Counted from the stretch's first letter, positions 1 to 58,075 are shown. The stretch is DNA of 59,545 nucleotides from a virus (IMGVR_UViG_3300045284_000044:1-59545); one strand, 5' to 3'. The notes: generated by a model from the letters alone, not told the origin. Translations and numbers: made by a program.

Positions 1-44
1 GCACCGGGGGCTAGCAAGCACAGCTAGCCCCCCACGGTGTCTAC
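1..44 (+). repeat. G.G-mismatch hairpin A, completed across the circular join (5' arm starts at 59532)
   Basis: GTAGATA-G-CACC-GGGGGCTAGC loop AAGCACA GCTAGCCCCC-CACG-G-TGTCTAC. Confidence 0.75.
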
Positions 45-96
45 AGCACCAGGGAGGGAACGAATGAGAGAAAAGCCCTGCAAGGTGATGCACAAA

Positions 97-234
97 GTGG
101 GTACCGGCTTGAAGTGTCATATCTACAAGTCCGGTGCTGCCTTTATCAAAGACAAGCACTCAACTCTCTCACACAGGCAATACACTTCCGCGACGGAAGC
201 ACAGGCCCAGCTACGTAAGTCTGGCTGGCGCTAG
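97..234 (+). CDS. Small basic early hypothetical protein
   Basis: Part of ORF 37..234; RBS-like AAGGTGA at 82-88 favours the GTG at 97. Confidence 0.55.
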   Translation: MGTGLKCHIYKSGAAFIKDKHSTLSHRQYTSATEAQAQLRKSGWR

Positions 235-259
235 TACCTGAAAGCCTTACAACTTCAAC

Positions 260-288
260 TTGACAAAGGGGTGAGAACCTGATAGGCT
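260..288 (+). promoter_or_regulatory. Sigma70/SigA-type promoter with extended -10
   Basis: TTGACA(260-265)-17 bp-TAGGCT(283-288), with TG-N before the -10. Confidence 0.8.
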
Positions 289-294
289 ACAGCC

Positions 295-378
295 ATGATA
301 CTTCTGATTACCTCACTCGTCGGGGCTGGAGCTATTGCAGGCATCGCAGCCCCAATCATCAAGCTGCTTAACCCGTAA
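295..378 (+). CDS. 27-aa hydrophobic peptide, probably leaderless
   Basis: MILLITSLVGAGAIAGIAAPIIKLLNP; the ATG sits at the expected +1 of the 260-288 promoter. Confidence 0.6.
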   Translation: MILLITSLVGAGAIAGIAAPIIKLLNP

Positions 379-391
379 GCCCTGCAAGACC

Positions 392-449
392 GTAGCAGCG
401 CCGAGGGTTACTAAGCCGCACAGGGCTTAGTAACCCTCCACGGTGCTAC
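392..449 (+). repeat. G.G-mismatch hairpin B
   Basis: GTAGCA-G-CG...AGGGTTACTAAGCC loop GCACAG GGCTTAGTAACCCT...CG-G-TGCTAC. Confidence 0.8.
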
Positions 450-505
450 CGCATTAGCGGAAACACTAGCACCCGAAAGAGGGGTGATGCACAAAGAGTA
501 ACATT

Positions 506-973
506 GTGACTTCAACCGAAACCCCTGAGAAAGTGGATGATCGCATTACGGATTATCAGGCAGACTTGGCAAAGGCCCGCAATCGCTTCGATACGATTAC
601 GCAATGGCACATTGAAGCAATGATGGCGGTTCCTGAGCTTCCTCTGCCTTACGTGGACGCTAACACGGTTTACTGTAACGTGGAGGACGAGGACGGTAAG
701 ATTGACGTTCCTGCTACCAAGTCCTTGCTTCGCAAGGTGTCCAAGTTCGCGCTTTCAAAGGGATACGAAGTCAAGAAAGATTACTCGTATGACTTCAGTG
801 TCAAGGTGATTCTGAAGGACGAGTATCCGCGCATTAGCGTTAGCTACAGCGTTGATCGCGCAGCGGTCTGCACCAAAAGGGTTGTGGATACAAAGGTTGT
901 TCCTGCTCGCACGATTCCCGAAAAGATCGAAGAGGTCGTGGAGTGGGATTGCGGTACCCTGCTCGGAGACTAA
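506..973 (+). CDS. Early hypothetical protein (155 aa)
   Basis: Long ORF with purine-rich GAAAGAGGGGTGA element upstream. Confidence 0.8.
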   Translation: MTSTETPEKVDDRITDYQADLAKARNRFDTITQWHIEAMMAVPELPLPYVDANTVYCNVEDEDGKIDVPATKSLLRKVSKFALSKGYEVKKDYSYDFSVKVILKDEYPRISVSYSVDRAAVCTKRVVDTKVVPARTIPEKIEEVVEWDCGTLLGD

Positions 974-1042
974 GTAGCACGGACTAGCCTACAGCCATAC
1001 AAGCACAGCACAGCATAGGTAGGCTAGTCTACGGTACTTAGT
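969..1042 (+). repeat. G.G-mismatch hairpin C
   Basis: ACTAAGTA-G-CAC-GGACTAGCCTAC...GTAGGCTAGTCT-ACG-G-TACTTAGT; the loop contains GCACAGCACAG. Confidence 0.8.
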
Positions 1043-1045
1043 ACC

Positions 1046-1188
1046 AGTAGTTGCATAAGACAGAGACAAAGAAAAAGCCGTACCCCTCTAAAGGTGCCCA
1101 AAGGGCATCCGATTGTAACGTGCAATCAAGGCGGGTCTAATACAGAAACGGCCCTGACGAGGATAAGTCTCTGTCTTATGGAGCTACT
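1046..1188 (+). ncRNA. Putative structured RNA cassette D (long closing stem plus multi-hairpin cargo)
   Basis: AGTAGTT-G-CATAAGACAGAGAC ... GTCTCTGTCTTATG-G-AGCTACT; internal stems GCCGT/ACGGC, TGCCC/GGGCA, GATTG/CAATC; no ORF of 60 aa or more. Confidence 0.7.
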
Positions 1189-1193
1189 TACAA

Positions 1194-1432
1194 AGTAGTT
1201 GCATAAGGTAGTAGACGAAATCCACGTGAGAATGGTGGATGCGAGAAGATAGAGGCGGCAAAGGCCTACCGGCATCTATCATAAGCATAGCGTGTAAAAC
1301 CGTGGCCCTGCAAGCTGGTTGAGCACTGATACTTGGAGAGTGCAAAAGAGCCAGTAGGTAAGGCGGTAGCGTAAACCATTCAATAGGCGCCGTGGCCCTG
1401 CAAAGATAAGTCTACTACCTTATGGAGCTACT
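1194..1432 (+). ncRNA. Putative structured RNA cassette E
   Basis: AGTAGTT-G-CATAAGGTAGTAGAC ... GTCTACTACCTTATG-G-AGCTACT; outer arms identical to cassette D, inner arms differ compensatorily; several internal hairpins. Confidence 0.7.
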
Positions 1433-1437
1433 AGCGA

Positions 1438-1466
1438 TTGACAGGTAGTTCTGTACGTGCTAAGCT
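1438..1466 (+). promoter_or_regulatory. Sigma70/SigA-type promoter with extended -10
   Basis: TTGACA(1438-1443)-17 bp-TAAGCT(1461-1466), with TG-N. Confidence 0.8.
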
Positions 1467-1513
1467 TTACCCGTACTTTGACAACCTAGAGCACCGAAAG
1501 GGGGTGAACTTTC

Positions 1514-1825
1514 ATGCCCAGCGAACTGAACCTTTCGGAGATTAAGGATCTGCTCAATTCTGGCAAGAGCCGGTTGTATAAGCCTTGCATCATTGAATTC
1601 GTCAAGTCCGACGAAATCTATGAGGATATGATGCAGAATCCTGCATTCACTGAGAAGAATGCTAGTTCCGTATTCCAGAGCTTCAAGAACAATCTGGATA
1701 AGCTCGTTCGTGACAACCCGGATTGGCCTCACATTGAGGTCAAGAAGGCAGAGAAGGATGGTAAGGAGCTTGTGCTTCTTATCAATATGACTCTGCTTGC
1801 CGGCGCTGTTGCCGACGAGGACTAG
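1514..1825 (+). CDS. Small early protein, paralog of 8623..8922 and probably 6007..6240 (possible DNA-binding)
   Basis: RBS GAAAGGGGGTGA; shares R-x(1-2)-Y...FVKS...V[LF][LV]IN pattern with 8623..8922. Confidence 0.8.
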   Translation: MPSELNLSEIKDLLNSGKSRLYKPCIIEFVKSDEIYEDMMQNPAFTEKNASSVFQSFKNNLDKLVRDNPDWPHIEVKKAEKDGKELVLLINMTLLAGAVADED

Positions 1826-1915
1826 CTCAGTGGAGTCTCCAATCTGCTCACAATAATGGTGGGCGGAGTGTACCTGAGCTTGTCAACAGAAATCAGGACT
1901 CTAGCACAGGTTTAC

Positions 1916-2009
1916 GAGCGAGCGTAAGATGATTTAGGGAATCTGGTGGCACAGCGGGTAACATAGATTACCGGGCCATCAATGTAGGTTCGAATCCTAC
2001 CGCCGCTCA
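1916..2009 (+). ncRNA. tRNA-like RNA 1 (acceptor helix and T-arm; D and anticodon arms replaced by one long irregular hairpin)
   Basis: GAGCG(A)GCG pairs with CGCCGCTC-A; T-arm GTAGG-TTCGAAT-CCTAC. Confidence 0.65.
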
Positions 2010-2017
2010 TTGTAAGT

Positions 2018-2141
2018 CTGTAGTTGCACCCCGCACAGATAGCGTGCTTAGCCTTGCGAGGCGGCCGTTCGTTACCACGGCGGGCAAAGGCCAAGTTACG
2101 TGGTTGCAACCTTTGCTTATCTGTGCGGAGTGGAGCTACAG
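2018..2141 (+). ncRNA. Putative structured RNA cassette F
   Basis: CTGTAGTT-G-CAC-C-CCGCACAGATA ... TATCTGTGCGG-A-GTG-G-AGCTACAG enclosing three hairpins (GCCT/AGGC, GCCGT/ACGGC, GGCAAAGG/CCTTTGCT). Confidence 0.7.
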
Positions 2142-2162
2142 TAGAATGGAGGTGAAAATCAA

Positions 2163-2336
2163 ATGGCATTCACATTGCGGAAGGCTTCCGTTACTCCCAA
2201 GGGAGACTTCATTTGCAAGGACTCGCAGTTCGCAACTAAGCGGGAACTGAAGGCGGAAATCGCGCGATCCTCATACAGCGATATCCGGTGGATTCCCGGT
2301 ACCAGAATCATGGCGATGCGCTTGAAGTCCAGATAA
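2163..2336 (+). CDS. 57-aa basic hypothetical protein (not in the ORF track)
   Basis: Strong RBS GGAGGTG; MAFTLRKASVTPKGDFICKDSQFATKRELKAEIARSS... Confidence 0.7.
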   Translation: MAFTLRKASVTPKGDFICKDSQFATKRELKAEIARSSYSDIRWIPGTRIMAMRLKSR

Positions 2337-2455
2337 TGCACCACTTGACTGGACTAGCATTGATGCATTACCTCATGCTCGCAATGAAGCAAGGTTACCA
2401 TTGTTGGGCTGAGTATCGCAATCACCGCTATGACTTTTACTGCGGTGACAAGTAG
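2336..2455 (+). CDS. 39-aa hypothetical protein
   Basis: TAATG stop/start coupling to the upstream ORF; MHHLTGLALMHYLMLAMKQGYHCWAEYRNHRYDFYCGDK. Confidence 0.5.
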   Translation: MHHLTGLALMHYLMLAMKQGYHCWAEYRNHRYDFYCGDK

Positions 2456-2512
2456 GGCATAGTAAGGGCCACGTTAAAGTACCAGTACCAGCACAAACAA
2501 ACTTAACAACGT

Positions 2513-2669
2513 GCCCCCGCTGCTGAGCTAATCCAGAGAATTAGCGAGAGTGGTAACGCAGAGCAGCTGGACAACGATTGGTACCACGGTATTAACTTTT
2601 CGGCTGGTACCCGAAAAACCAAGACCGCAATCATCCATATCGTCGCAGGTTCGAGTCCTGCCGGGGGCT
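2513..2669 (+). ncRNA. tRNA-like RNA 2 (157-nt expanded cloverleaf)
   Basis: 7-bp acceptor GCCCCCG/CGGGGGC; T-arm GCAGG-TTCGAGT-CCTGC; D-stem GCTG/CAGC with inserted GCTAAT/ATTAGC hairpin and AGTGGTAA; branched domain in place of the anticodon loop. Confidence 0.7.
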
Positions 2670-2993
2670 GCTTACTATCATAACGAGGCGTCAGAATTAG
2701 AGCCACAGGCCACGCCTACCTACTTTAGTGGTCTAGGACTAGATAAGAACCGTGTGAAGTGAGTTTCAGCGCTACGGTCGCCACTTACGAATAGCAACAG
2801 GGTCGAGTATACGGTAATGAGCAAACAGTCCGAGTGAGTATGCGAATCTCGCCTGCTAACCCTAACGCTTTGTGTAAAGTGCTCGCCCAGGAGGGCGTAA
2901 ACAAAACCGGCTAAAAGTAACCGAGTCGGTCTATAAATCTATAGGGTTACTCAGATGCTAGTATCAGATAAACTAGCTATCCACAATGGTGGC

Positions 2994-3042
2994 AGCCTGT
3001 GCGGTTTAGGCCGATTCCGGAGTTCAACTCTCTGGCAGGCTA
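2994..3042 (+). ncRNA. tRNA-like RNA 3 (49-nt mini-tRNA)
   Basis: Acceptor AGCCTGT/GCAGGCT-A; single hairpin CGGT-TTAG-GCCG; T-arm CGGAG-TTCAACT-CTCTG. Confidence 0.55.
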
Positions 3043-3211
3043 TCGACTACAGAAAAGAGGTCAAAGGTGAAATCGCATCAGGATTTCGCATATGATAGCG
3101 ACAGATATCTTCTGGCCTATCATTTCACTCGGCTGTGGCGCATTAGGCACGTAGCCGTAGCCAGAGATTCCCTGAGGCAAAACATCAGGGCACAACGGAA
3201 GGCAAAGCAAT

Positions 3212-3409
3212 ATGACCAATCTCACTAAAGCTAAAGTAACGTACATCAAGTGCCCAAATGTAACGTGTAAGCGTTACCCTGTAATCGCACAGATTCCAAC
3301 TGCGACGGGTGATCTTTACTGCACAGCTTGCGGTTGCGATCACAGTTCCGGCCTCGATGCTAGGGAGATTCTAGTAAAGATCAAGGCACATCTCAGACTA
3401 GCCGCCTGA
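3212..3409 (+). CDS. Small zinc-ribbon-like protein
   Basis: CPNVTC ... CTAC cysteine pairs. Confidence 0.65.
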   Translation: MTNLTKAKVTYIKCPNVTCKRYPVIAQIPTATGDLYCTACGCDHSSGLDAREILVKIKAHLRLAA

Positions 3410-3431
3410 GTAAACAAAGCGGCTACAAAAC

Positions 3432-3576
3432 TTAGTTCGATAATGGAGCTAATCGGCCACTACATAGTCATACGATTAGGTCGGCCATAGATACGGGTCG
3501 AAAGCCCTATGGGTCTATGCGAACCCTCTGAAAGTCACTGGCATGATAGCGCCGGTTAGCTCCATTATCCAACTAA
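3432..3576 (+). ncRNA. Putative structured RNA cassette G
   Basis: TTAGTT-C-GATAATGGAGCTAATCGGC ... GCCGGTTAGCTCCATTATC-C-AACTAA (about 25 bp, one C.C mismatch) enclosing nested stems with a GAAA loop. Confidence 0.7.
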
Positions 3577-3586
3577 AGGGGTTCAC

Positions 3587-3748
3587 GTGAATTTAGTATT
3601 GAAGTTGGACGATAATGTTGTGTACGCTGTGCTTGCTGCGATTGCATTTATCACAGTAACTATAGCGACGTACAAGACCCTGACGTTTAGGGATTACGGT
3701 ACGCAGCCGCAACAGCACGAACAGCCGGGTGATACCTGGCACAAGTAA
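3587..3748 (+). CDS. 53-aa single-pass membrane protein (not in the ORF track)
   Basis: RBS AAAGGGG, GTG start; hydrophobic stretch VVYAVLAAIAFITVTIA. Confidence 0.55.
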   Translation: MNLVLKLDDNVVYAVLAAIAFITVTIATYKTLTFRDYGTQPQQHEQPGDTWHK

Positions 3749-3759
3749 AGGGAAAGGAG

Positions 3760-4143
3760 GTGATTACTATCAGCCTCAAGAGGGGGATACCCCATGACAT
3801 CACAAAACTTGGTGAATGGTGTCCGGTATGTGGACAACTTACCGACGAACATACGACCGCAAAATTGCGCGACATTTATGACAGACTCAGAGACGGTCGT
3901 AGCACCTATGAAGCACTAGTCTTTACGTCTGATTGGCTGCAAGAAAACATTCATGACGAAGAAGATGAAGAATCGGTAATGCTTGCAATGGAACGTGACA
4001 TGGCATATCGCGGTCTTTGTACCGGCTGTGCGCGTCCTGACCTACGTAACATTAAGCCCTCTGACGTAATGTCAGAAGAAGAAGCCCAAGATCTACATGA
4101 AATGTGGGCAGAACAAGCAGCCGAGCGTAGAGCAGGTTGTTAG
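3760..4143 (+). CDS. Acidic Cys-containing hypothetical protein
   Basis: RBS GGGAAAGGAG; CPVC and CTGC motifs. Confidence 0.75.
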   Translation: MITISLKRGIPHDITKLGEWCPVCGQLTDEHTTAKLRDIYDRLRDGRSTYEALVFTSDWLQENIHDEEDEESVMLAMERDMAYRGLCTGCARPDLRNIKPSDVMSEEEAQDLHEMWAEQAAERRAGC

Positions 4144-4212
4144 CATCGTGGTTAGGGTGAAGTAGCCCAGTGCAGAGTGGACTAAAGCCCTAATAAATCC
4201 ACTCAAATTTTT

Positions 4213-4283
4213 GGCCCGTTCGTCTAATGGCAGGACGTCGCACTTTCCATGCGATGGCGTGAGTTCGATTCTCACACGGGCTA
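4213..4283 (+). tRNA. tRNA-Glu(TTC), atypical C at position 37
   Basis: Acceptor GGCCCGT/ACGGGCT-A; D-arm GTC..GAC; anticodon arm TCGCA-CTTTCCA-TGCGA; T-arm GTGAG-TTCGATT-CTCAC; no encoded CCA. Confidence 0.85.
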
Positions 4284-4359
4284 TTGCTAACTCGGCTTAA
4301 AACCAGTAAGTATTTCTGGCGCCGACGGATTCTAGATCGTTAGCGAAGGAGGTGATAAA

Positions 4360-4719
4360 ATGAGTGAGTTCGGTTCGGGTGTTGTCGTGTGTCTGGCAAA
4401 GTTCAGTCAGCACTTGGACAATATCCACCGTTTCAAGGAAACGTATACCAGCATTGGCAAGGATGAAACTTCAGTTTTGTATGACGCGATCACAATGGCG
4501 ATGAACGGTGCCTCAGATCACTTCTATGATTTGGATAGGGATAAGGCACCTGAGTCGCTTATCAAGCTTGCCGATCTAACACTTGAAATCGGCCACGGTT
4601 TTCGTGGAGGTGTAGTCTACACACAAGACACAGTTGATGAAATCTTCAAGCTTTGGGAAGAGTCGTGTCTTGCCGTAGACAAAATGCTTGGTGTCGATGG
4701 TGATTGGGGTACGTGGTAG
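4360..4719 (+). CDS. Hypothetical protein
   Basis: RBS AAGGAGGTG, 119 aa. Confidence 0.8.
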   Translation: MSEFGSGVVVCLAKFSQHLDNIHRFKETYTSIGKDETSVLYDAITMAMNGASDHFYDLDRDKAPESLIKLADLTLEIGHGFRGGVVYTQDTVDEIFKLWEESCLAVDKMLGVDGDWGTW

Positions 4720-4734
4720 TAAAGGAGGTGAAAT

Positions 4735-4986
4735 ATGAACACAACCCAAGATGGCAGAGAATGCCTAGACTTTTACAACGATCATAAGGGGCCTTGTGAT
4801 AATGGGCCTGTTATGTATCATCCATCAATCGCTGGAACAGGCACAATGATTCCGCGATGCGAAAAGCACTATCAAATGCTTTTGGATGAGCATGACGAGT
4901 ACAGTAAAGTCATGCCCGATAGTCCAATGGCGCCGGCGTGGTTTGATCCAACAGCCATAGGCGAACATTGGAATGAGGATTACTAA
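4735..4986 (+). CDS. Hypothetical Cys/His protein
   Basis: RBS AAGGAGGTG; C..H..C..RCxxH pattern. Confidence 0.8.
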   Translation: MNTTQDGRECLDFYNDHKGPCDNGPVMYHPSIAGTGTMIPRCEKHYQMLLDEHDEYSKVMPDSPMAPAWFDPTAIGEHWNEDY

Positions 4987-5225
4987 TGGATTACCAAATA
5001 GAGTTTGTCTTTCGTGATCTTACGGAGGATGAAGCAGAAAAGAAAGCTGGAGAAATTCATGATTTTCTTTTCATGTCCGACCCAAACTCAGAGTTCGAAC
5101 AGTTTGTAATGAGGATTCATTTAGATGACGACGGTGATAGTTTTAGGCTAGAGCACGTTTCTCATTGGCCTGAAGATGCCACCGGCCCATTTAATGATAG
5201 AGTATGGGAAGGAGGTGATGACTAA
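4986..5225 (+). CDS. Small acidic hypothetical protein
   Basis: TAATG coupling; D/E-rich. Confidence 0.75.
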   Translation: MDYQIEFVFRDLTEDEAEKKAGEIHDFLFMSDPNSEFEQFVMRIHLDDDGDSFRLEHVSHWPEDATGPFNDRVWEGGDD

Positions 5226-5480
5226 ATGGCAGAACTAAACTACACAGTCAAAGTTAACTCAGGTGATCCAGAAAATGACGCTAAGTATTGTCTAGAACTT
5301 TTCAAGATTTTTTCTGGAGTAACTGAGGGCATCAAGTCTTTTGGCTATACGGATGACGAATGTATTTGCACGTCAGACTTCAAGCCAACAGGATATGATG
5401 ACGATGGTGAAAAGAGATTTGATGCAAACCTCGAAGTACAGCACATAATCGAGGATCATGGCACACGAGAAATCGAATAA
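5226..5480 (+). CDS. Small acidic hypothetical protein
   Basis: RBS GGAGGTG; D/E-rich. Confidence 0.75.
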   Translation: MAELNYTVKVNSGDPENDAKYCLELFKIFSGVTEGIKSFGYTDDECICTSDFKPTGYDDDGEKRFDANLEVQHIIEDHGTREIE

Positions 5481-5784
5481 AAAGAAGCACACTACAATCA
5501 TCCATGGTGTCTTGCTACCAAGATCCATCGAAAAAAGACAACTCAGTTTTCGATGTGACATTACACATCAGAATGATTTGTTCGACGATTTCTACCGCTA
5601 TAACGAGGTATTATTTCCAGAGTTTGAACCACCCAGCATTCTCAACGTGGATGGTTTGATTTACACGCACAGTCCATGGGGAAAAGCAGAATGCTCAATA
5701 GAACTTGCGATTGACATAGCGATTGATAAATATGTCGAACACAACCCAGGCCCTTTCAAACCTAATGTAAAGAGTTGGAGATAG
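5458..5784 (+). CDS. Hypothetical protein
   Basis: ORF tiles the operon; GAGG upstream. Confidence 0.6.
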   Translation: MAHEKSNKKKHTTIIHGVLLPRSIEKRQLSFRCDITHQNDLFDDFYRYNEVLFPEFEPPSILNVDGLIYTHSPWGKAECSIELAIDIAIDKYVEHNPGPFKPNVKSWR

Positions 5785-5791
5785 CACAAGA

Positions 5792-6004
5792 ATGAAGATC
5801 ATAGCATTTGGCGTTTTCGTAGTGGTGTGGATTTCGATTTTGAGCCATATCCATGTATCGAAAAGCCAGTCACATTCAAAACCGCACAGCAGCCATAGCA
5901 CAGGCTACTGTCAGACGTTGTACGACTTGGATGTTCAATCGAATTTGCTTTACGCCGATGATTCATTCAAGCGGGGTGGCGCCTGCTATAACTTTAAGGG
6001 GTAA
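5792..6004 (+). CDS. Small membrane-anchored or secreted protein
   Basis: N-terminal hydrophobic helix; RBS GGAG. Confidence 0.6.
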   Translation: MKIIAFGVFVVVWISILSHIHVSKSQSHSKPHSSHSTGYCQTLYDLDVQSNLLYADDSFKRGGACYNFKG

Positions 6005-6006
6005 CG

Positions 6007-6240
6007 TTGGGAAAAGATTTCAAGCTTGTACCAGTACCTGAACTACCAGATTTCAAAGCTAAGGCAAGGCGATTGATCGACGAGTTTTTAGAGATGGATA
6101 CTCCCTTTGCTGAGATACAAGAAGCGAGCGCAACAGACTTGAGTATGTTACGGGTCTATATAAATAATCGTCGCCATAGAGAAGAATTGCCCGTAACAAT
6201 CAAACAACTTGACGATAAGGCTTTTCTAGTTAGGATCTAA
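6007..6240 (+). CDS. Small protein, distant paralog of 1514..1825 and 8623..8922
   Basis: LIDEFL...AEI...VTIKQLDDKAFLVRI resembles the EFVKS...V..KDDHVFVIN pattern. Confidence 0.65.
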   Translation: MGKDFKLVPVPELPDFKAKARRLIDEFLEMDTPFAEIQEASATDLSMLRVYINNRRHREELPVTIKQLDDKAFLVRI

Positions 6241-6245
6241 AGGCT

Positions 6246-6331
6246 GCCCCGATGGCGAAATTGGTAGACGCGACAGGCTTAAAACTTGTTGTCCTTTACA
6301 GGGCGTGTCGGTTCAAGTCCGACTCGGGGCA
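6246..6331 (+). tRNA. tRNA-Leu(TAA)
   Basis: GCCCCGA/TCGGGGC-A acceptor; anticodon arm ACAGG-CTTAAAA-CTTGT; long variable arm; T-arm GTCGG-TTCAAGT-CCGAC. Confidence 0.95.
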
Positions 6332-6371
6332 TTGGCTGTAATATTTTACAGTCAGCACAGAAAGGTGAACT

Positions 6372-6968
6372 ATGAATGTGAATAATATTTACCCAGGATC
6401 AGAGTACGCCGTATTCCCTAACGGTAAGTCTAGGGGTGGCGGATTTGAACCCGGCGCCATACGAATTCGGGTATACCGAACATTCAAGAAGCCGCCTGAA
6501 TACGGACAGAAGCGTAGCACAGCGTATGTAACTGCAATCCGTCTAACCCGCGATGGTGAAGTTTACCCCGGTGATAACGGAAACATGCGTGAATATCGCG
6601 CTTATGACGTGGCAGACTTCTGGGATGAGTATGAGGATCAACTTCAGCATTACGAAGTTGAAGAAGAAGCACGCCAAGAAAAGCGACGTCTCCAACGTGA
6701 GGAATACGATCGCCAATGGCGTGAAAGACGAGAGCGCGAAGAGCGTGAGCGAATCGAACGCGAACGCCTAAAGCTTGAAAAAAGAGCTAGAGTTGTAGAG
6801 GGTTTACAAAAGCTCGGGTTTACCGAGGATCCAGAGGACGTAATAGCATTTGAAAAAGAAGTCCGGCTAACATTCGATCAGTTCTTGAATTGGCTTAACC
6901 AATTCGAAAAGCAGGACTGTGTTGTTTGCGGCCGTGAAATTACAATAGTTCGACTTCCGGGAGCGTAA
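6372..6968 (+). CDS. Hypothetical protein with E/R-rich charged helix
   Basis: RBS GAAAGGTGA; ERREREERERIERER tract. Confidence 0.8.
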   Translation: MNVNNIYPGSEYAVFPNGKSRGGGFEPGAIRIRVYRTFKKPPEYGQKRSTAYVTAIRLTRDGEVYPGDNGNMREYRAYDVADFWDEYEDQLQHYEVEEEARQEKRRLQREEYDRQWRERREREERERIERERLKLEKRARVVEGLQKLGFTEDPEDVIAFEKEVRLTFDQFLNWLNQFEKQDCVVCGREITIVRLPGA

Positions 6969-6974
6969 ACAATA

Positions 6975-7283
6975 ATGAGCGGATACGAGTTGAAGCGCAA
7001 GCAATTAAGCGCAGATCAAATCGCAAATCTGCTCAAGAGTAAAACTTCGACTGACCAAAAGCACGAACCAAAGGTCAGGCCGTCTTTCACTCTTGAGCAG
7101 TACGAGGCGATGGCTGATGCATATCAGAATGGTAAGACTTCTTTTGATATGCCAGGACTAGGTGAGTATACAGTCACCCTTCAAACTACTAGAAGCGGTG
7201 ATTGGGTAGTCGTTATGCCGGTTAAAGGCCACGTCCCGATGGGATGTTACAATGCAAAAACGTTGGCCGACCGCAGCAAGTAA
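6975..7283 (+). CDS. Hypothetical protein carrying the LSADQIANLL motif
   Basis: RBS GGAG; ORF tiles the operon. Confidence 0.75.
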   Translation: MSGYELKRKQLSADQIANLLKSKTSTDQKHEPKVRPSFTLEQYEAMADAYQNGKTSFDMPGLGEYTVTLQTTRSGDWVVVMPVKGHVPMGCYNAKTLADRSK

Positions 7284-7758
7284 TGTTACTGATACTGGGA
7301 TTGGCGACGATAGCAATTCTAGTGGTAGCACTAGTTCTCATGAAGCTGTATGTATTTCTCCAAATACACAAGATGTAAACGTAAACGTCGGCATGATTAA
7401 GTCAACGTATCACTTATCAGGAAAGCCGAACGAACGGTTAATCCTGATCCATTTGTGTGAGAGAGTAGGAGCACAGTTCAAGTATGATGCAGAGAATGAC
7501 TGGTGTGTAGTTACGGCGTTAGATCCAAAGCACTTACAGCAAGTCCGATCAGAATTCGACAGTGTTATCCAGTACGGAATTCGAAATCTTGTGTGGTTAC
7601 AAGCAGACCCAAGATACACAGGAGTGTCTGTAAAAACACTACACTCGGAATTCATGCGAGGTTTTGCTAATGGTATCATTGGTGAGGGCAACTACGTCCG
7701 ATCCAAAACCGCAATCGAACGAAAAGGATTGAGAGCGGGGTTAGCTTATGGGAAGTGA
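7252..7758 (+). CDS. Hypothetical protein (true start probably downstream)
   Basis: ORF tiles the operon. Confidence 0.6.
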   Translation: MQKRWPTAASNVTDTGIGDDSNSSGSTSSHEAVCISPNTQDVNVNVGMIKSTYHLSGKPNERLILIHLCERVGAQFKYDAENDWCVVTALDPKHLQQVRSEFDSVIQYGIRNLVWLQADPRYTGVSVKTLHSEFMRGFANGIIGEGNYVRSKTAIERKGLRAGLAYGK

Positions 7759-8032
7759 ACTGAGTATTGACACAATCAAGGAACTACTGGCAAGTAAGCC
7801 TAAGCGTGGCGGTAGTCCTCGTAAAGACGTAACAGAGCCACGGACTATCGAAAACTGGTGGAAACAACAGCAACACTTTGTTAATGCTGAGGATACAGGA
7901 CTTGTTTGCATGAATGTAAACTGTCTCGATCCAAAACCAGGTAGAGTTAGAGTTTTGGCTGATATTAAAGGCCGAATGTGTTGTAGGTATTGTTTCCTCG
8001 ATGGTTGGCTGAGTGGTAAAGAGTATGACTGA
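7748..8032 (+). CDS. Zinc-finger-like protein carrying the LSIDTIKELL motif
   Basis: CMNVNC ... CCRYC. Confidence 0.7.
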   Translation: MGSELSIDTIKELLASKPKRGGSPRKDVTEPRTIENWWKQQQHFVNAEDTGLVCMNVNCLDPKPGRVRVLADIKGRMCCRYCFLDGWLSGKEYD

Positions 8033-8555
8033 TATTCAGGACACTCAGGAAGGCCCTAGTGACTTAGATGGGCCTAACGGGGATATCCCGGCTCACGTCC
8101 GTACCAGGTTTGCGGGGAATGATACCCTTCTTAGCCTTACCACCAAACTTTACGACGGAATGGAGGAACGCGCGAATAAGGGTGTTTATGTCGGAAGTAT
8201 CACTAAGCTGTTTGACGAGCTGAGACTACCGCAAGCGTATTACTCGCGGATTACGCAGCAGTTGAAGAAGTTAGGCTATGCCGAGCAGATTGAGCGCGGC
8301 GCACCCGGCCGCCCGTCAGTCTGGAAACTATGGCACCGTCCAGACCCGGACACCTGGAAACTTCTATACGTCCGGCGGGGCGAAGGGTTGACACCCCCGC
8401 CCGGACGTGATACGCTTACGAGTGTAAGCAACCGGGTAGAGGCACTAGAGAAAAGGCTTGGCGGATTAAATGTAGTAACGGCAATAGCCGAACTAAGCAA
8501 AGAAATCCAAAAAGCACAGGAGAGAATAGATGGCCTCTCGACAGCAACAGAGTAA
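8013..8555 (+). CDS. Putative winged-helix DNA-binding protein with C-terminal coiled coil
   Basis: ITKLFDELRLPQAYYSRITQQLKKLGYAEQIERG...SVWKL resembles a wHTH. Confidence 0.6.
   Translation: MVKSMTDIQDTQEGPSDLDGPNGDIPAHVRTRFAGNDTLLSLTTKLYDGMEERANKGVYVGSITKLFDELRLPQAYYSRITQQLKKLGYAEQIERGAPGRPSVWKLWHRPDPDTWKLLYVRRGEGLTPPPGRDTLTSVSNRVEALEKRLGGLNVVTAIAELSKEIQKAQERIDGLSTATE
8388..8416 (+). promoter_or_regulatory. Intragenic sigma70/SigA-type promoter
   Basis: TTGACA(8388-8393)-17 bp-TACGCT(8411-8416), with TG-N. Confidence 0.75.
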
Positions 8556-8622
8556 GTCAAGAACAACAGCAACAAGTAAGTCAACAACAAGCACAGCGAC
8601 AGTAACAAAGGAGAAAAAGAAT

Positions 8623-8922
8623 ATGGCACTTACGCCAGATCAGATCAATCAGCTGCTTTCGGATCAGCGTGGTCGTGGAGACTATGGTGTTTACCTCGAT
8701 ACGTTCGTAAAGTCCGGTAGTGCTGGTGAGGAAGTCGATCTTAAGGGTGGACTTCTTGCAGGTAAGACTCCCGATAAGGTTAAGACGGGTATCGGGAATG
8801 CAATCAAGTCCCGCGATAAGGATGGCAACCTTCGTCATCCCGAAGCACAGAACGTTGTGGTTATCTCTAAGGATGACCATGTGTTCGTGATTAACCGCGA
8901 CGTTGTTGCGGGCCAGGGCTAG
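8623..8922 (+). CDS. Small protein, paralog of 1514..1825, starts MALTPDQINQLL
   Basis: RBS AAGGAG before ATG 8623, in frame with ORF 8530..8922. Confidence 0.8.
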   Translation: MALTPDQINQLLSDQRGRGDYGVYLDTFVKSGSAGEEVDLKGGLLAGKTPDKVKTGIGNAIKSRDKDGNLRHPEAQNVVVISKDDHVFVINRDVVAGQG

Positions 8923-8941
8923 TATTAATTAGCCAAGTATG

Positions 8942-8969
8942 GGGGAGGGTTACCACAAGTAACCCTCCC
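8942..8969 (+). terminator. GC-rich hairpin after 8623..8922
   Basis: GGGAGGGTTAC-CACAA-GTAACCCTCCC; no U-tract, so may be a processing or stability hairpin. Confidence 0.45.
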
Positions 8970-8970
8970 T

Positions 8971-9125
8971 CATAAAAGGGTGCAATTACATACCTAGGAC
9001 TGCTGTTATACAGTTACCGAGATTAAGGTACGTACTAACTGTTTAAGGCGCCATACGCAGCTAGTAAGGAACTTGTCCCGATTAACTGAAACAGTAGGAA
9101 CAAAGTGTAATTGCACCCTTTTATG
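8971..9125 (+). ncRNA. Putative structured RNA cassette H
   Basis: 21-bp closing stem CATAAAAGGGTGCAATTACAT/GTGTAATTGCACCCTTTTATG around about 113 nt with nested stems (CTGC/GCAG, ACAGTTA/TAACTGT). Confidence 0.65.
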
Positions 9126-9172
9126 GGACACTCAACCCATACACAGTAACACTACATAGGAGCTAGATTCAA

Positions 9173-9355
9173 ATGCAGCGCCATTACAATACCGAAAACG
9201 AATTCATCAATGCTGAGGTTACTCGTCTTGGTTGGGATGAAGTTGAGCGGCTTTTGGATATTGGCTTTGAACCTAAGCTCACTAACGAAGGCTGGCGTTG
9301 GATTCAAGTTCCTCTTATTACTGTAAACCCTACGAAGCGGAGGGTTAGGGTTTAA
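9173..9355 (+). CDS. Small hypothetical protein
   Basis: RBS AGGAG. Confidence 0.7.
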   Translation: MQRHYNTENEFINAEVTRLGWDEVERLLDIGFEPKLTNEGWRWIQVPLITVNPTKRRVRV

Positions 9356-9369
9356 GTAAAACAAAATGT

Positions 9370-9445
9370 GCGGGTTCAAATCCTGCCCGTGGCCGTAGAC
9401 TACGGAAACGCTACATGGCAGTAGCGAAAGAGGTTGGCTTCCTCT
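9370..9445 (+). ncRNA. tRNA-like RNA 4, circularly permuted arm order
   Basis: T-arm GCGGG-TTCAAAT-CCTGC, then loop-closed helix CCGTGG/CTACGG, then CGCTAC-ATGGCA-GTAGCG, then AGAGG-TTGGCTT-CCTCT. Confidence 0.6.
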
Positions 9446-9485
9446 ATCTACTTTTAATTTAGTTGTAACAGTATTAGTTATGCAC

Positions 9486-9514
9486 TTGACACCGCTCCCA
9501 GCGTGTGCTACGCT
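9486..9514 (+). promoter_or_regulatory. Sigma70/SigA-type promoter with extended -10
   Basis: TTGACA(9486-9491)-17 bp-TACGCT(9509-9514), with TG-N. Confidence 0.8.
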
Positions 9515-9655
9515 ACTAAAGCTGGTCGAGCGCGCTTCCGGCATCCGGCGCAATAACCGGATCAAAGGGGGTTAGCGCGTTAAGGTGCCTGTGCTCACTT
9601 TGACCGTTAACCCCCTTAAAAATGTTTTCACTTCTGAAAACAGCTTGAAAATGCT

Positions 9656-9679
9656 TGCCCCACTAAAGGGGCATTTTTT
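9656..9679 (+). terminator. Rho-independent terminator
   Basis: TGCCCC-ACTAAA-GGGGCA followed by TTTTTT. Confidence 0.75.
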
Positions 9680-9777
9680 GTATTAACAAATAGAAAGGGG
9701 TGATACAGCTAGACAACTAGCAATCCCACCGCATATACTCGGTGGAATCTAGTAAACTACACAGGAGATTTAACCTT

Positions 9778-10134
9778 ATGAAGCGTAAGCTGTCACTTAC
9801 CGTTGCCCTACTAGCCGTAGGGCTAGCGGGACAAACAGCCCAAGCTGATTCAAGTAAGTCGAACTATAACACAGCACAAAAAGCAGTTTGTTATTACTTT
9901 GGCCCGAACTGTACGCAAGCAATGAAGATTGTTAACTGTGAAACAGGTGGGTCATACAGTCCGTGGGCATCGAATGGTCAATATCTTGGAATGTTTCAGA
10001 TGGGATCATATGCCAGAAGTAGGTACGGTCACGGTAATAATGTTTGGGCACAGGCAAAGGCTGCATATGCATACTTTAAGGATGCAGGCTGGGCACCGTG
10101 GCTAAACTACGAACCTCCGGGATGCGGCAGTTGA
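9778..10134 (+). CDS. Secreted lysozyme-fold lytic transglycosylase (SLT/Rpf-like)
   Basis: Signal peptide ending AQA; catalytic IVNCETGG; GQYLGMFQM; GWAPW; RBS AGGAG. Confidence 0.8.
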   Translation: MKRKLSLTVALLAVGLAGQTAQADSSKSNYNTAQKAVCYYFGPNCTQAMKIVNCETGGSYSPWASNGQYLGMFQMGSYARSRYGHGNNVWAQAKAAYAYFKDAGWAPWLNYEPPGCGS

Positions 10135-10212
10135 GGGTGCGATCCTATTTCAGTAGATCCAAATTCGAGTACGGAGTTTTGCCCATCTTGTGGTAAATAC
10201 GTAGAGATAATA

Positions 10213-10641
10213 ATGCCGGATACAGGATGGTGCGAGTCCTGTTCCGGCATTACTTCTAGGATTTGCGTGAGATGTGGTGACGAATTTATGTCCAAAACAC
10301 TGGGCTACGTTTGTGAACCCTGCCTTAACATAACGTATAATGACATAGAAATTCTGTTGTTCAATGGCTTTAGCCTCACTAGAGCTAAGGTAATAATTGC
10401 GGAGAACAATCGTGCTTATTGCCTTTGCTGTGGTGACTATATGCCAAGAGCACTTAAAGGGCGTCATCACTTTTGCACAAAGAAACCTAACTGCCGGCGA
10501 TCAGCACGTCGATTAAAGTATTACCGGCAAATGTTAGCGATGGACAAAGAGGCAGCACTAGAACGTGTGTTGCAATCTTTGGAATTCGAACAGCAACAAG
10601 CAGCAATAATAGAAAGTCTACTAACCCAGCACAGGGAGTAA
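10213..10641 (+). CDS. Cys-rich zinc-finger protein
   Basis: Multiple CxxC pairs. Confidence 0.7.
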   Translation: MPDTGWCESCSGITSRICVRCGDEFMSKTLGYVCEPCLNITYNDIEILLFNGFSLTRAKVIIAENNRAYCLCCGDYMPRALKGRHHFCTKKPNCRRSARRLKYYRQMLAMDKEAALERVLQSLEFEQQQAAIIESLLTQHRE

Positions 10642-10645: not shown

Positions 10646-12214
10646 ATGGAGATCAAGCCACCTGAACCGTGGCAAGAAACAGATATCAACTATCTCCTAG
10701 AGCGACCCATCGCAAAGGGATCAGCTAACTGGTCACAAATGGGTGGGAAGAAAACCAGCACAGGATTGTGGTTTGCATCCCAGCTTGCGGAGAACTTGGG
10801 GATTGTTAATCCCAAGATTCTAATCATCACCACTCGTTCCGGTAAGGGGACATACTTTCAGTTGGCCCCTGGATTGCTGCCTGGATGGACAATCTTTAAC
10901 ATCGGAACTCAGAGTGTGCATGTTTTGCTGAACGGCTTGGAGCTAAAGCTGCCGCTTGAGACTATCGGTAGTGATTATTCAATGCCAGTTCTAGCGGTGA
11001 CACATTACAATGTATTCACCAAGTCCAATCTTGGTGTACCCGAAGTCGATGACGAGGGATATCCTAAGACTGACGAGAGCGGTAAGATTATCTTCAAGCC
11101 TCTACAGCAGGCTGATTATCTTCTGGACATTGATTGGGACATTGTAATCCTTGATGAGGCCCATCGTATTAAGAACCGTAAGGGTAAGTGGGTCAAGAAC
11201 ATCAAGCGTCTTAAGGCCAAGCACCGTCACATCATGACGGGTACGGGATTCATTAATCGTCCCGATGAAATCTGGTCGCTGTTCAACTTCCTGGATCGAC
11301 GCGAATACAATAACTACTGGAAGTTTCGCAAAGAGTTCTGCTACGAGGAATCTGCGTTCGATGAAAACTCAGAGGACAATGGTTACACTAAGGTAGCAGG
11401 AATCAAGCCAGAGAAGTTGGCAGAGTTTAGAGCACTCGTTAGGGCATTTGGCCCACGTCGAGAACTCAGAGAGGTAATGCCTCATCTCAAAGAACCGATT
11501 AAGGTTCGTCGTGATGTAGAACTTTCTCTACCTCAGCGGCGAATGTTCAATGAGATCCAAGCGTTTCTTGAAACTTTGGACAGAGAGGGTAAGCCACTCT
11601 CTACACCTGGTGCTCTCGCTGCGTTACAGCGATTGCGAATGGTTACAGTCGCAACTCCTATCGTCGTCGGTGATTACTACGATGAAAAGGAAGAACGACG
11701 GGTAATCAAGATCGAGCTGGAGGAACCTTCTTCTAAGCTGGACGCTGTAATGGACGTTCTTGATGAACTTGAATGGGACGATGAATCGAAACAACAGGTT
11801 GTAATCTTTTCAAATTTCACTGATCCTTTGAAGTTGCTTGAGGTAAGATTACAGAATGCTGATATCCCATATCTCTGGATGAAAGCATCGCATAGTGACC
11901 AAGAGCGGTTCCAAATGTGGGCAGAAGAATGGCCTAAGAAGGAACACAGGGTATTCATGTCTACTGTAGCACTAGGTGGAGAGTCAATCAACTTGACGTC
12001 GGCTCAATACTTGATCTTTTTGGATCGTAGTTGGAGTCCAAAGGATAACAATCAGGCCATCGGTCGTATTGATAGGCCAGGTCAAACAGGCCAGCCGGTT
12101 GTTATCAACATCGAAGCAGAGGATACAACCGACCAAGTTGTCGAGGATAAGGTAAACATGAAGGAAGGTTGGTTCCGTCAGATATTCGGACGCGAACCTT
12201 CCTCGTTGGTATGA
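10646..12214 (+). CDS. SNF2-family (superfamily 2) helicase
   Basis: ILDEAH, MTGT, VVIFS, GESINLT, QAIGRIDRPGQ motifs; Walker A variant MGGKKT. Confidence 0.9.
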   Translation: MEIKPPEPWQETDINYLLERPIAKGSANWSQMGGKKTSTGLWFASQLAENLGIVNPKILIITTRSGKGTYFQLAPGLLPGWTIFNIGTQSVHVLLNGLELKLPLETIGSDYSMPVLAVTHYNVFTKSNLGVPEVDDEGYPKTDESGKIIFKPLQQADYLLDIDWDIVILDEAHRIKNRKGKWVKNIKRLKAKHRHIMTGTGFINRPDEIWSLFNFLDRREYNNYWKFRKEFCYEESAFDENSEDNGYTKVAGIKPEKLAEFRALVRAFGPRRELREVMPHLKEPIKVRRDVELSLPQRRMFNEIQAFLETLDREGKPLSTPGALAALQRLRMVTVATPIVVGDYYDEKEERRVIKIELEEPSSKLDAVMDVLDELEWDDESKQQVVIFSNFTDPLKLLEVRLQNADIPYLWMKASHSDQERFQMWAEEWPKKEHRVFMSTVALGGESINLTSAQYLIFLDRSWSPKDNNQAIGRIDRPGQTGQPVVINIEAEDTTDQVVEDKVNMKEGWFRQIFGREPSSLV

Positions 12215-12639
12215 CCAAGCACAATAAAGAACTTCAAAGAATAAGCAGAGAGCTTGCCTCCATACAACGGAGGCAAGCTAATCTGCAAGAGATTAACGAT
12301 CTAATTCGCTGGATGCAGTTTCGTTTTGATGATCCTGACACTCCGGCTACCTTAATCAGAGCCAATCTAGCTCGCATTATTCGTTTGGCTAAGAAGGAAG
12401 GTTTGAAGATCGATCCTGAATTCCTTAAAGACATCAAACGAGTTGATAACATAGGTGATATTATGACTCAACTCGACCGGGCATTCAGGAAGTATGCTAA
12501 ACGAAAGCCCGAGCCGGAGGTCATTAAACGCGAGCCGCATATTTGTGCTTACTGTAACAAACGTGAAGCACACTTCGGCGATCTATGTAAGCGGTGCGCC
12601 AATGAACTAGGTGTCAGGCCAACCGGAAAAGTAACATGA
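12211..12639 (+). CDS. Hypothetical protein with C-terminal zinc finger
   Basis: ATGA overlap with the helicase stop; CAYC..CKRC. Confidence 0.7.
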   Translation: MTKHNKELQRISRELASIQRRQANLQEINDLIRWMQFRFDDPDTPATLIRANLARIIRLAKKEGLKIDPEFLKDIKRVDNIGDIMTQLDRAFRKYAKRKPEPEVIKREPHICAYCNKREAHFGDLCKRCANELGVRPTGKVT

Positions 12640-12890
12640 TAAAAAGAATTGTCTATGGGCCACCGAACTGGCTCGTCGATAAGTTTACTACGGAAGATCG
12701 ACGAGCCTTTGGCTTTTGGACAATCATATTCTCAATGGTCGGTGCTATATTCTTCGGACGTCAAGTATTATACGTGACGATCCTAAGCATAGTTGCCCTC
12801 ATCCCGAACTACGCAAGTGAAACACCTGTTGAAATAGAAACGGGAGAAGGAGAGGAGTCAGCACAGAATGAGCAAGAACAAGACAGCTAG
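12636..12890 (+). CDS. Small membrane protein
   Basis: Two hydrophobic segments. Confidence 0.65.
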   Translation: MIKRIVYGPPNWLVDKFTTEDRRAFGFWTIIFSMVGAIFFGRQVLYVTILSIVALIPNYASETPVEIETGEGEESAQNEQEQDS

Positions 12891-13170
12891 TCTACGAGTG
12901 AGATATGCGCTAGATCATCATGCACAGGTGCTAAAGCCCCTTTTTGAAGGTCTACAACACGCACTCGATTTTAGTGGAGTTATGCAGTCATTCGGTTCAC
13001 GTTTAGGCGGGGCTAATAGCAACTACTTTGATACCCCACAGCGCAGATATCACATTAAGGGTATCGTGCGTCCCACACCGGGTATTGAAGTACGATATTC
13101 TCCGCGTGGGCCTGTAGTTGTGAAGCTCAAGAATGAACGTGATGCAATCAGGTTCGTGGAAGGACTGTAA
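12868..13170 (+). CDS. Hypothetical protein
   Basis: RBS GAGGAG. Confidence 0.7.
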   Translation: MSKNKTASLRVRYALDHHAQVLKPLFEGLQHALDFSGVMQSFGSRLGGANSNYFDTPQRRYHIKGIVRPTPGIEVRYSPRGPVVVKLKNERDAIRFVEGL

Positions 13171-13394
13171 TGGCATACAGTAACGTTTCAATTCACAGAA
13201 AGTTGATTCGCATTAGCGGCCCTTCAATGGAGAAGTATGTCAGTGAAGAAACAGAACAGGGAGTAAGGGCCGGTCGAGCACAGTTCGATGATGCGAATCA
13301 AGAAGTAGTTGATGGTATTAACTGGAGCGAAGTCGAAGAAGCACTTAATGACCAGCTCCCCGAGGGATACAAGGCTAAGGTGGTGGACTTTTAG
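13170..13394 (+). CDS. Hypothetical acidic protein
   Basis: TAATG coupling; RBS AAGGA. Confidence 0.7.
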   Translation: MAYSNVSIHRKLIRISGPSMEKYVSEETEQGVRAGRAQFDDANQEVVDGINWSEVEEALNDQLPEGYKAKVVDF

Positions 13395-13547
13395 CCATGA
13401 TTATCGGCGAGTTGATTGTCTTGTTAGGTAAGCATAACATCAACGACGAAGTCGTTATGGAAGTCAACGGCCAGTTAACACAGATCCATTCAGTAGATCA
13501 CATGGTTCTGGAAAACTTACAAACCAAGATAATCATCTCGGACTACC

Positions 13548-13994: not shown

Positions 13995-14032
13995 GTTAGT
14001 GCCCACTACGGGCCTTGCTGCCGTAAATGGGC

Positions 14033-14061
14033 TTGACAAGCGGAACGCTTTGTGCTATGCT
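14033..14061 (+). promoter_or_regulatory. Sigma70/SigA-type promoter for the recombination/replication operon
   Basis: TTGACA(14033-14038)-17 bp-TATGCT(14056-14061), with TG-N. Confidence 0.8.
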
Positions 14062-58061: not shown

Positions 58062-58075
58062 GCGTCAGGGTTGTA
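58044..58075. repeat. Perfect 32-bp palindrome with no spacer
   Basis: TACAACCCTGACGCCTAGGCGTCAGGGTTGTA equals its own reverse complement. Confidence 0.95.

Follow-up and report, generated by a model that had tools for sequence, protein, structure and literature searches.

The early region of the virus IMGVR_UViG_3300045284_000044, an uncultured soil phage, contains five long-range stems, designated D, E, F, G and H, each of which closes a different insert (cargo). The whole IMG/VR virus record, a stretch of 59,545 bases with a CheckV completeness of 100, was analysed and is referred to here as the window. At roughly even odds (a probability of about 0.5), the stems are a reusable closing helix, or stalk, of the sense-strand RNA in early transcripts, and would serve as processing or stabilising brackets that are cut by a double-strand-specific nuclease.

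Under a strict rule (at least 20 Watson–Crick pairs and 30–420 nucleotides (nt) between the arms), exactly these five stems were found in the 59.5 kb, and 50 dinucleotide shuffles contained 0.12 on average and never more than 2. The same five were returned by a looser rule (arms of at least 22, with G.U pairs and 2–3 mismatches permitted), for which 30 shuffles gave 0–4 stems (mean ~0.6). An initial annotation of this DNA had placed five inverted repeats around different inserts at these positions, and all of them were present beyond chance. Each stem has 21–24 Watson–Crick pairs, and all five cassettes lie on the plus strand. Cassette D (1046–1188; arms 1046–1067 and 1167–1188) has a 22-bp stalk (91%) with a class I base and a 99-nt multi-hairpin insert (folding z-score −7.71). 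Only 5 nt downstream lies cassette E (1194–1432; arms 1194–1216 and 1410–1432), with a 23-bp stalk (91%), a D-like base and a 193-nt insert (z = −5.55). Cassette F (2018–2141; arms 2018–2041 and 2118–2141) has a 24–25-bp stalk (88%), a class I base and an insert of 74–76 nt (z = −5.16). The 26-bp stalk (92%) of cassette G (3432–3576; arms 3432–3457 and 3551–3576) has a variant base (UAGUU, a C.C mismatch and GAUAA) and encloses 93 nt (z = −6.52). The stem of cassette H (8966–9130) is unrelated in sequence; its 20-bp core (8971–8990 and 9106–9125) is 100% paired, lengthens to 8966–9130 with G.U pairs and encloses 113–115 nt (z = −6.90). The z-scores thus ranged from −5.2 to −7.7, and in each case none of 200 shuffles folded as well. 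The plus strand folded better than the minus strand for D (−62.4 versus −53.9 kcal/mol), F (−60.2 versus −58.4 kcal/mol) and G (−60.7 versus −56.2 kcal/mol).

The longest complete sense ORF (open reading frame) within a cargo was 6 amino acids (aa) in D, 27 in E, 0 in F, 4 in G and 0 in H. The inserts are non-coding, and their description as ORF-poor was confirmed. The interiors of the five are mutually unrelated. All five cassettes are on the gene strand between ORFs, with no promoter-like site directly in front. F lies between a tRNA-like (transfer RNA-like) element and ORF 2163–2336, G between ORFs 3212–3409 and 3587–3748, and H between ORFs 8530–8922 and 9173–9355, a gene junction at which relatives have one to three long stems. 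The term 'array' therefore suits D and E, which are adjacent, but not F, G and H, which are scattered among small ORFs. The cassettes are not terminators, since no T run follows any of the five stems, whereas a canonical terminator sits at 9656–9683.

The base common to D, E and F reads 5'-(A)GUAGUU-G-CA / UG-G-AGCUAC(U)-3' and includes a U.G pair and a G.G mismatch. The inner helices of D and E differ by compensatory changes only. The common outer arms and the fully compensatory inner arms were as the initial annotation had described them. G has the same layout as D, E and F, with a C.C mismatch replacing G.G. The proposal of one reusable stalk around distinct inserts accordingly stands for D, E and F, with G as a variant, but does not extend to the unrelated stem of H.

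Relatives of the virus were gathered by alignments of the DNA polymerase and of the SNF2 helicase, and five records were fetched whole. The searches yielded 12 loci, 80 metagenome loci (27 true relatives, 37–59% best-segment identity) and 64 IMG/VR loci (55 true, 42–57% identity). A single-protein SNF2 search of viral contigs returned no relatives, although the alignment-based searches did find them. About 40 relatives, whose SNF2 proteins are 42–54% identical to that of the window, bear similar stems. Stems that are unrelated in their inner arms have the marked base, ACGUAGUUG(A/C)...(U/G)GAGCUACGU, including the U.G and the G.G, in common. This base was found in three stems of the window, in one stem each of the relatives L244 and L283, and in two abutting stems each of L260 and L285; the SNF2 proteins of these four relatives are 42–48% identical to that of the window. 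The U.G and the G.G are on the same side in every instance. A second base type, UAGRGUUARU.../...AYUAACYCUA, occurs in G001, G002, L228, L229 and L234. The junction between stalk and cargo also recurs, as AAA on the 5' side and GGAUAA on the 3' side, in D, E, L076 562–682, L234 508–710 and L237 2470–2601. By-eye readings of the D/E junction as a hammerhead or a kink-turn were rejected, since the order of the core elements misfits and Rfam gave no match. An exact outer-arm pattern with a gap of 95–125 nt matched 39 stretches in viral contigs, all of which were discarded as chance because none of the 39 continued the helix past two pairs.

The stems of the wider family were inventoried in 79 gene-sense-oriented sources, comprising the window, G001–G003 and the metagenome and IMG/VR loci, minus seven duplicate loci. 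With a criterion of at least 18 Watson–Crick pairs, 153 stems (124 unique) were found. At least one stem was present in 41 of the 79 sources and a loop of at least 55 nt in 21; among the 47 sources of at least 10 kb, the respective numbers were 31 and 19. Examples from the early regions of relatives are located at 11798–16257 in G001, 4783–8889 in G002 and 117–2354 in G003. Loop sizes were unbroken from 3 to ~360 nt, with counts of 13, 20, 27, 20, 12, 11, 11, 7, 1 and 2 in successive bins from 3–9 nt up to 300–460 nt. In two relatives, G001 (L062; 12038–12449) and G002 (L065; 8350–8772), a long-range stem surrounds an orthologous ORF for a basic protein of 106 and 104 aa, respectively (26% identity, E = 3e-8). 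The cores of these gene-enclosing stems measure 25 and 19 bp in the same order, or 24–37 positions with G.U pairs and mismatches, and their sequences differ. No homologue of the 104–106-aa protein was found in the window.

Because loop sizes form a continuum and whole genes can lie inside stems, the stem is the constant element and the insert the variable one. The stalk is a general bracket for a transcript unit and not a device for small RNAs only, since the same stems close loops of 3–40 nt and, in two relatives, the gene for the 104–106-aa protein. The 'delivery system' for small RNAs that had been suggested is for the same reason too specific.

The mismatched pairs within the stems carry a strand signal. 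In the gene sense, the 124 unique stems contain 180 G.U and 72 A.C oppositions (binomial p = 7.6e-12), although the stem finder scored G.T and A.C alike and treated both strands alike, and base composition predicts a ratio of 1.04:1. Leaving out the window gave 175:70. Part of the late region, which is transcribed in the opposite direction, is included in some loci, and its inclusion can only reduce the G.U bias. An excess of G.U over A.C is expected from folding in the sense RNA rather than in DNA, and a DNA-level repeat would not preserve the one-sided asymmetry of the marked base. Both observations point to selection on pairing in the sense RNA and not in DNA. Selection on pairing had been proposed from D and E; it is borne out by the G.U bias and by many compensatory changes.

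Four further hairpins on the plus strand, each after an early ORF, combine a stalk-type base with a small internal loop, an upper stem and a short loop. The hairpin at 392–449, after a small ORF, has a GUAGCA base, a G.G mismatch, a small internal loop, a 15-bp upper stem and a 6-nt loop (z = −8.47). The hairpin at 969–1042 begins at the stop codon of ORF 506–973 and ends 3 nt before D; its 8-bp base is followed by a G.G mismatch, an internal loop and a 12-bp upper stem (z = −5.19). A GUAGUA base with a G.G mismatch was found at 58499–58555. The fourth hairpin folds when the record ends are joined, with its 5' half at 59526–59545 and its 3' half, including the upper stem, at 1–50; its 7-bp base is separated from a 10-bp upper stem by a mismatch and an internal loop (−39.5 kcal/mol).

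Among the cargos, that of cassette E represents a new conserved structured RNA family of ~190 nt with three members. With nhmmer and the covariance model R1, full-length homologues were detected in L076, a metagenome contig (256.7 bits), and in the contig of L234 from IMG/VR (130 bits), which had been left out of the building of R1. The E-type RNA consists of the stalk P1, an invariant P2 (CCACG/CGUGG), P3 and P5. In the three-sequence alignment, all 143 of 143 cells pair and 24 of the 49 pairs are altered on both sides. None of 500 shuffles reached this, and slid controls gave 0–2 pairs changed on both sides. An independent alignment with MAFFT and RNAalifold recovered P1, P3 (4 of 7 pairs compensatory) and P5. 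The three sequences agree letter for letter over long unpaired stretches, and the conserved parts are out of a single frame, being separated by indels of 13 and ~30 nt. The gene neighbours of E differ among the window, L076 and L234.

Rfam 15 gave only tRNAs in the window at the gathering score, as it did in a further search of window 1–10500 at E-values up to 5, and nothing at the gathering score in the E-type loci of relatives. The cargos had not been recognised as known families, in agreement with these searches. Pattern searches for further E-type copies led to no new member. An E-motif pattern matched two stretches in viral contigs, both in one coding sequence of another virus, and 70 stretches in genome contigs, about the number expected by chance by our estimate; the four of these 70 with a second short motif within 300 nt were all in unrelated GC-rich sequence. 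A longer E pattern matched no contig beyond the already known L234. For D, model R1 matched the stalk and junction (35.1 bits). A homology of the D cargo with L076 562–682 is not claimed, because the MAFFT alignment of the two was poor, and only the stalk and junction were kept as common. A second shared cargo was seen by eye in G003 1325–1461 and L237 2470–2601, where it is enclosed by different stalks.

Cassettes come and go among close relatives. Eight sequencing runs contain part of the stretch, all of them of DNA (seven soil metagenomes and one metagenome by label). In a near-identical relative from a different soil sample, a 227-nt contig runs from window position 1187 straight on to 1438, so that E and its 5-nt flanks are absent, with one difference in each flank. 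In the same run, F is placed after 2864 rather than after 2016. These contigs have low depth and attest the joined form, not its frequency; parts of the stretch have no contig cover in runs X2–X5. A contig of run X3 that covers H showed 8 differences and 3 gaps. These joins support the gain and loss of cassettes as units.

Other segments of the early region varied as well. A contig of run X4 carries 31 other letters in place of ORF 4360–4719 (window 4323–4721). Between a tRNA-like element and ORF 3212–3409 lies an ORF-poor segment of ~540 nt (2676–3211; fold z −2.4), the left part of which is swapped for other sequence in relatives, with joints at 2695/2696 in runs X3 and X4. Directly 3' of the tRNA-like element, a small hairpin (AACGAGGCGUCA...CACGCCUACCU) is conserved at window 2683–2722, L076 ~520–555 and L234 ~472–500. 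In L076 and L234 a stalk cassette follows this hairpin, whereas D and E are located elsewhere in the window, which shows that the same modules have been rearranged.

RNase III, in hosts that possess it, classically acts on helices of at least 20 bp within a polycistronic RNA. The T7 sites for this enzyme consist of a lower stem, an internal loop and an upper stem. According to PMC4838370, RNase III frees ribosomal RNAs (rRNAs) and the small cytoplasmic RNA (scRNA) of B. subtilis from flanking stalks and cuts SP82 early RNA, the SP82 sites being targets of the B. subtilis enzyme. Like the stems described here, the RNase III sites in the early mRNA of phages (T7/T3 R0.3–R1.3; SP82/SPO1) are hairpins between early genes, with several sequence-related copies per genome. 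The short-loop hairpins at 392–449, 969–1042 and 58499–58555 and the end-spanning hairpin have the same succession of lower stem, internal loop and upper stem as sites of the T7/SP82 type. Unlike those sites, the helix of the present family can close a structured RNA of 70–360 nt or a gene, its U.G and G.G mark is common to distant phages, and its cleavage is predicted. D, E, F and G also look like the processing stalks of rRNA and of the B. subtilis scRNA, in which a long flanking helix surrounds a structured RNA (as outlined in PMC4838370). The rRNA and scRNA stalks each serve a single housekeeping RNA, whereas here one stalk type, known from sequence alone, encloses several unrelated cargos that are exchanged between phages.

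We therefore favour a model in which the stalk would close an exchangeable insert, be it a few nucleotides, a structured RNA of 70–200 nt or, in relatives, a whole small gene. The helix of at least 20 bp would be a substrate for a double-strand-specific endoribonuclease, with RNase III of the host as the default candidate, since the phage encodes no recognisable RNase III. Cutting would split the early transcript into units, each of which would retain paired ends that shield it from exonucleases, in the manner of T7 and SP82 early mRNAs, rRNA stalks and the B. subtilis scRNA precursor. The cargos that are structured, E for certain and perhaps D, F, G and H, would be freed as discrete, stable RNAs early in infection. 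Transcription within early operons, the cleavage itself, the identity of the nuclease and any action of the cargos in trans are what we infer here.

Several points weigh against these processing brackets. The E alignment was fitted to its model and comprises only three sequences, and E was found with R1 in just one of 38 relative virus records. The cargos of D, F, G and H had no homologues in the relatives searched, so their function as RNAs is putative. Of the 64 cargos with loops of at least 40 nt, only seven group, into three similarity groups, and most inserts could thus be neutral filler. Taken alone, G002 shows a mixed picture of G.U versus A.C in the gene sense. RNase III requires no conserved sequence, so the enzyme by itself does not explain the conserved base with its G.G mismatch, which may indicate that another factor is involved. 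Searches of the phage proteins revealed no RNase III domain, no double-stranded RNA-binding domain (dsRBD) and no other domain for RNA processing, and no RNA run is on record among the eight runs that contain the stretch.

The conserved mark leads to the main rival explanation, in which a dedicated, sequence-specific factor reads the U.G/G.G base and the AAA/GAUAA junction and processes, loads or regulates the units. This factor could be a phage endoribonuclease or RNA-binding protein without a known family, or a host protein. We regard such a reader as possible but clearly less probable than the processing brackets. It would account for a marked base that is kept in five phages whose core proteins are less than 50% identical while the inner arms are free to change, and for the recurrence of the AAA/GGAUAA junction in cassettes of the window, L076, L234 and L237. 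The second base type could reflect co-evolution with a lineage-specific partner in G001, G002, L228, L229 and L234, and most early proteins, which are without a family, leave room for the factor. No candidate protein emerged, however, as sequence searches of the PDB with four conserved early proteins gave a best E-value of 0.018, which is not significant, and the likeness of copies within one genome may stem from duplication and recombination. One lead is the protein family of ORF 506–973, which occurs in 14 of the 79 sources (homologues in G001, G002 and L076 among them), with a stem within ~80 nt in 6 of the 14. A search for homologous proteins with this ORF returned only the window's own protein. 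Its AlphaFold model is of medium confidence (pLDDT, the predicted local distance difference test, 69.5), and Foldseek matched it consistently, but weakly (E 0.03–0.4, template-modelling score ~0.39), to nucleotidyltransferases of the Pol-beta type (Pol mu, TdT, Cid1, TENT5). The family alignment showed no conserved catalytic Asp/Glu motif, which speaks against such a role, and the predicted likeness to nucleotidyltransferases is a lead only. The 198-aa protein 6372–6968, with an N-terminal domain and a charged region, gave a weak DUF294 match. A somewhat less probable alternative is that the stems remain uncut and act as clamps, which insulate folding, guard against exonucleases or regulate translation of neighbouring genes, the inserts being mostly neutral loop expansions. 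The continuous range of loop sizes from 3 to ~360 nt, the scarcity of cargos with detectable relatives and the position of many stems directly 3' of stop codons fit this idea. Yet a pure clamp would have no need for the conserved mismatch, a perfect helix of at least 20 bp is a textbook substrate of RNase III, and the unpaired stretches of E are identical and its helices co-vary across phages of saturated divergence, which indicates that at least the E insert is selected.

We consider it improbable that the inverted repeats are DNA-level signals for recombination or mobility, which shuffle modules between phages with the RNA folding being incidental. The contig without E (1187 joined to 1438) with its one difference per flank, the displaced F in the same run, the arms that copies have in common and the changing neighbours of E would all suit such signals. 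Miniature inverted-repeat transposable elements (MITEs), Correia elements, integron attC sites and T4-type cassettes are likewise repeat-bounded units whose presence and neighbours vary among close relatives; for T4-type phages, promoter/stem-loop cassettes were reportedly described by Arbiol et al. in 2010. The excess of G.U over A.C on the gene strand (180 versus 72), however, is unexpected for DNA hairpins or duplex sites, and the two half-sites differ in the same way every time. Unlike in MITEs, the interiors of the copies are unrelated, and selection on the pairing acts in the sense strand of the RNA. The phage encodes no integrase, Y1 transposase or reverse transcriptase, with 0 matches each to PF00589 (tyrosine recombinase), PF01797 (Y1 transposase, the one transposase family tested) and PF00078 (reverse transcriptase, E up to 1). 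The core sites of attC are R''(RYYYAAC)...R'(GTTRRRY); judged by eye, the stems have the reversed order, GTT being in the 5' arm and AAC in the 3' one. Recombination between the identical 14-nt 3' arms, finally, should have removed 244 nt, whereas the deletion of E spans 250 nt. Module exchange via common arms may still occur as a secondary effect. That the stems are transcription terminators or attenuators, or that the inserts encode micro-peptides, is very improbable. The hairpins are strong and lie at gene ends, E is followed by a promoter-like motif (TTGACA-17-TAAGCT at 1438, by eye) and contains an ORF of 27 aa. Against this stand the missing T runs, in contrast to the canonical terminator at 9656–9683, loops of 74–193 nt that far exceed those of terminators, the longest ORFs of 0–6 aa in D, F, G and H, and the conserved parts of E, which are not in one reading frame.

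Likenesses to other RNA systems were also considered. Y RNAs and YrlA are ~100–200 nt long and have an end helix with a conserved, bulged protein-binding site and a variable distal module that is sometimes tRNA-like; they are often multicopy. The cassettes resemble them in the long end-closing helix, and that of L234 508–710 contains a T-arm-like hairpin. However, Rfam gave no Y RNA or YrlA match at the gathering score or, in window 1–10500, at E-values up to 5, and the conserved helix sequence differs. With E-values up to 1, the whole record gave 0 matches to the TROVE/Ro domain (PF05731), while control genomes matched; a copy in the host is possible. Retron msr-msd RNAs are likewise structured RNAs of 150–250 nt closed by inverted repeats (a1/a2). 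A retron would differ from the present cassettes in its reverse transcriptase, of which none was detected; no Rfam retron match was obtained, and there are several unrelated cargos here. A description of stalk-closed cassettes was not found in full-text searches of the literature, the candidate list of PMC10690425 being outside the comparison; that source reports 8,495 candidate structured RNAs from IMG/VR, and the motifs described here may be among them. Three features are new: a single marked stalk that a phage family uses repeatedly for exchangeable cargos, the conserved U.G/G.G signature of this stalk, and the E-type RNA.

The two ends of the record have 7 nt in common, so that it either circularises or is terminally redundant. 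Plus-strand genes run from 57.6 kb via the origin to ~26 kb and include many small ORFs without known families, the SNF2 helicase, a PD-(D/E)XK nuclease, a RepB-type primase and a family A DNA polymerase with a UDG domain. The minus strand carries structural genes, among them a Mu-like portal. Pfam searches with 39 window proteins gave replication and structural domains only, and PHROGs searches with 10 early proteins gave one match, of unknown function; the majority of the early proteins fall in no family. Megablast of 900–9200 against cultured phages gave no match and thus no close cultured phage, and the DNA polymerase reached a best tblastn identity to deposited phages of 27.6%.

The early region contains further elements beside the cassettes. 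Elements resembling tRNAs, with a clean acceptor stem, a canonical T-arm (GGUUCGAxUCC) and oversized D and anticodon arms, are located at 2513–2670 and 1916–2010 and also at ~9369–9395. They were not called by ARAGORN, even with introns permitted, or by the Rfam tRNA model, and the whole-element fold z-scores were only −1.7 and −1.9. G001 has kept the 3' part of the element at 2513–2670 (83% over 56 nt); in L076 and L234, inspection by eye revealed a comparable T-arm region. Perfect TTGACA boxes followed by 17 nt and TAnnnT were found by eye before early ORFs at 260–290, 1438–1466, 9486–9514, 58139–58168 and 59273–59301, and strong ribosome sites of the GGAGG type precede the same ORFs. From these motifs, the early genes seem to use host promoters of the sigma-70/sigma-A type; a consensus scan found 14 promoters, not above the 13.5 expected in shuffles. 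Upstream of the TTGACA at 59273, AT-rich repeats of the TATA type (59140–59200) may be an origin or a DNA-unwinding element. A perfect 32-nt palindrome (16 + 16, without a loop) at 58044–58075 overlaps the stop codon of ORF 57624–58061.

To our knowledge, phage non-coding RNAs beyond tRNAs are poorly charted, and the phage RNase III sites that we know of are plain hairpins. If the stalks are processing signals, new phage RNAs could be located in metagenomes simply by finding the stalk and reading the insert, and the stalks would also provide a natural scaffold for the expression of structured RNAs. The conserved G.G and U.G mark poses the testable question of what reads it. More speculatively, and with a good deal less confidence than we have in the processing brackets, the marked stalk might be a plug-and-play RNA adaptor, the RNA counterpart of gene cassettes. 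A dedicated phage or host factor would then recognise the adaptor and excise or load the inserts, and these soil phages would be able to take up, exchange and express a varying repertoire of structured RNAs (E-type RNAs, tRNA mimics and others) in the first minutes of infection. Such RNAs would act on host proteins, for example as decoys for translation factors or for defences that target RNA. RNA genes, cassettes as well as tRNA-like elements, are dense in the earliest-expressed region, which suggests, as a conjecture, that these phages may rely on RNA for takeover of the host or for counter-defence.

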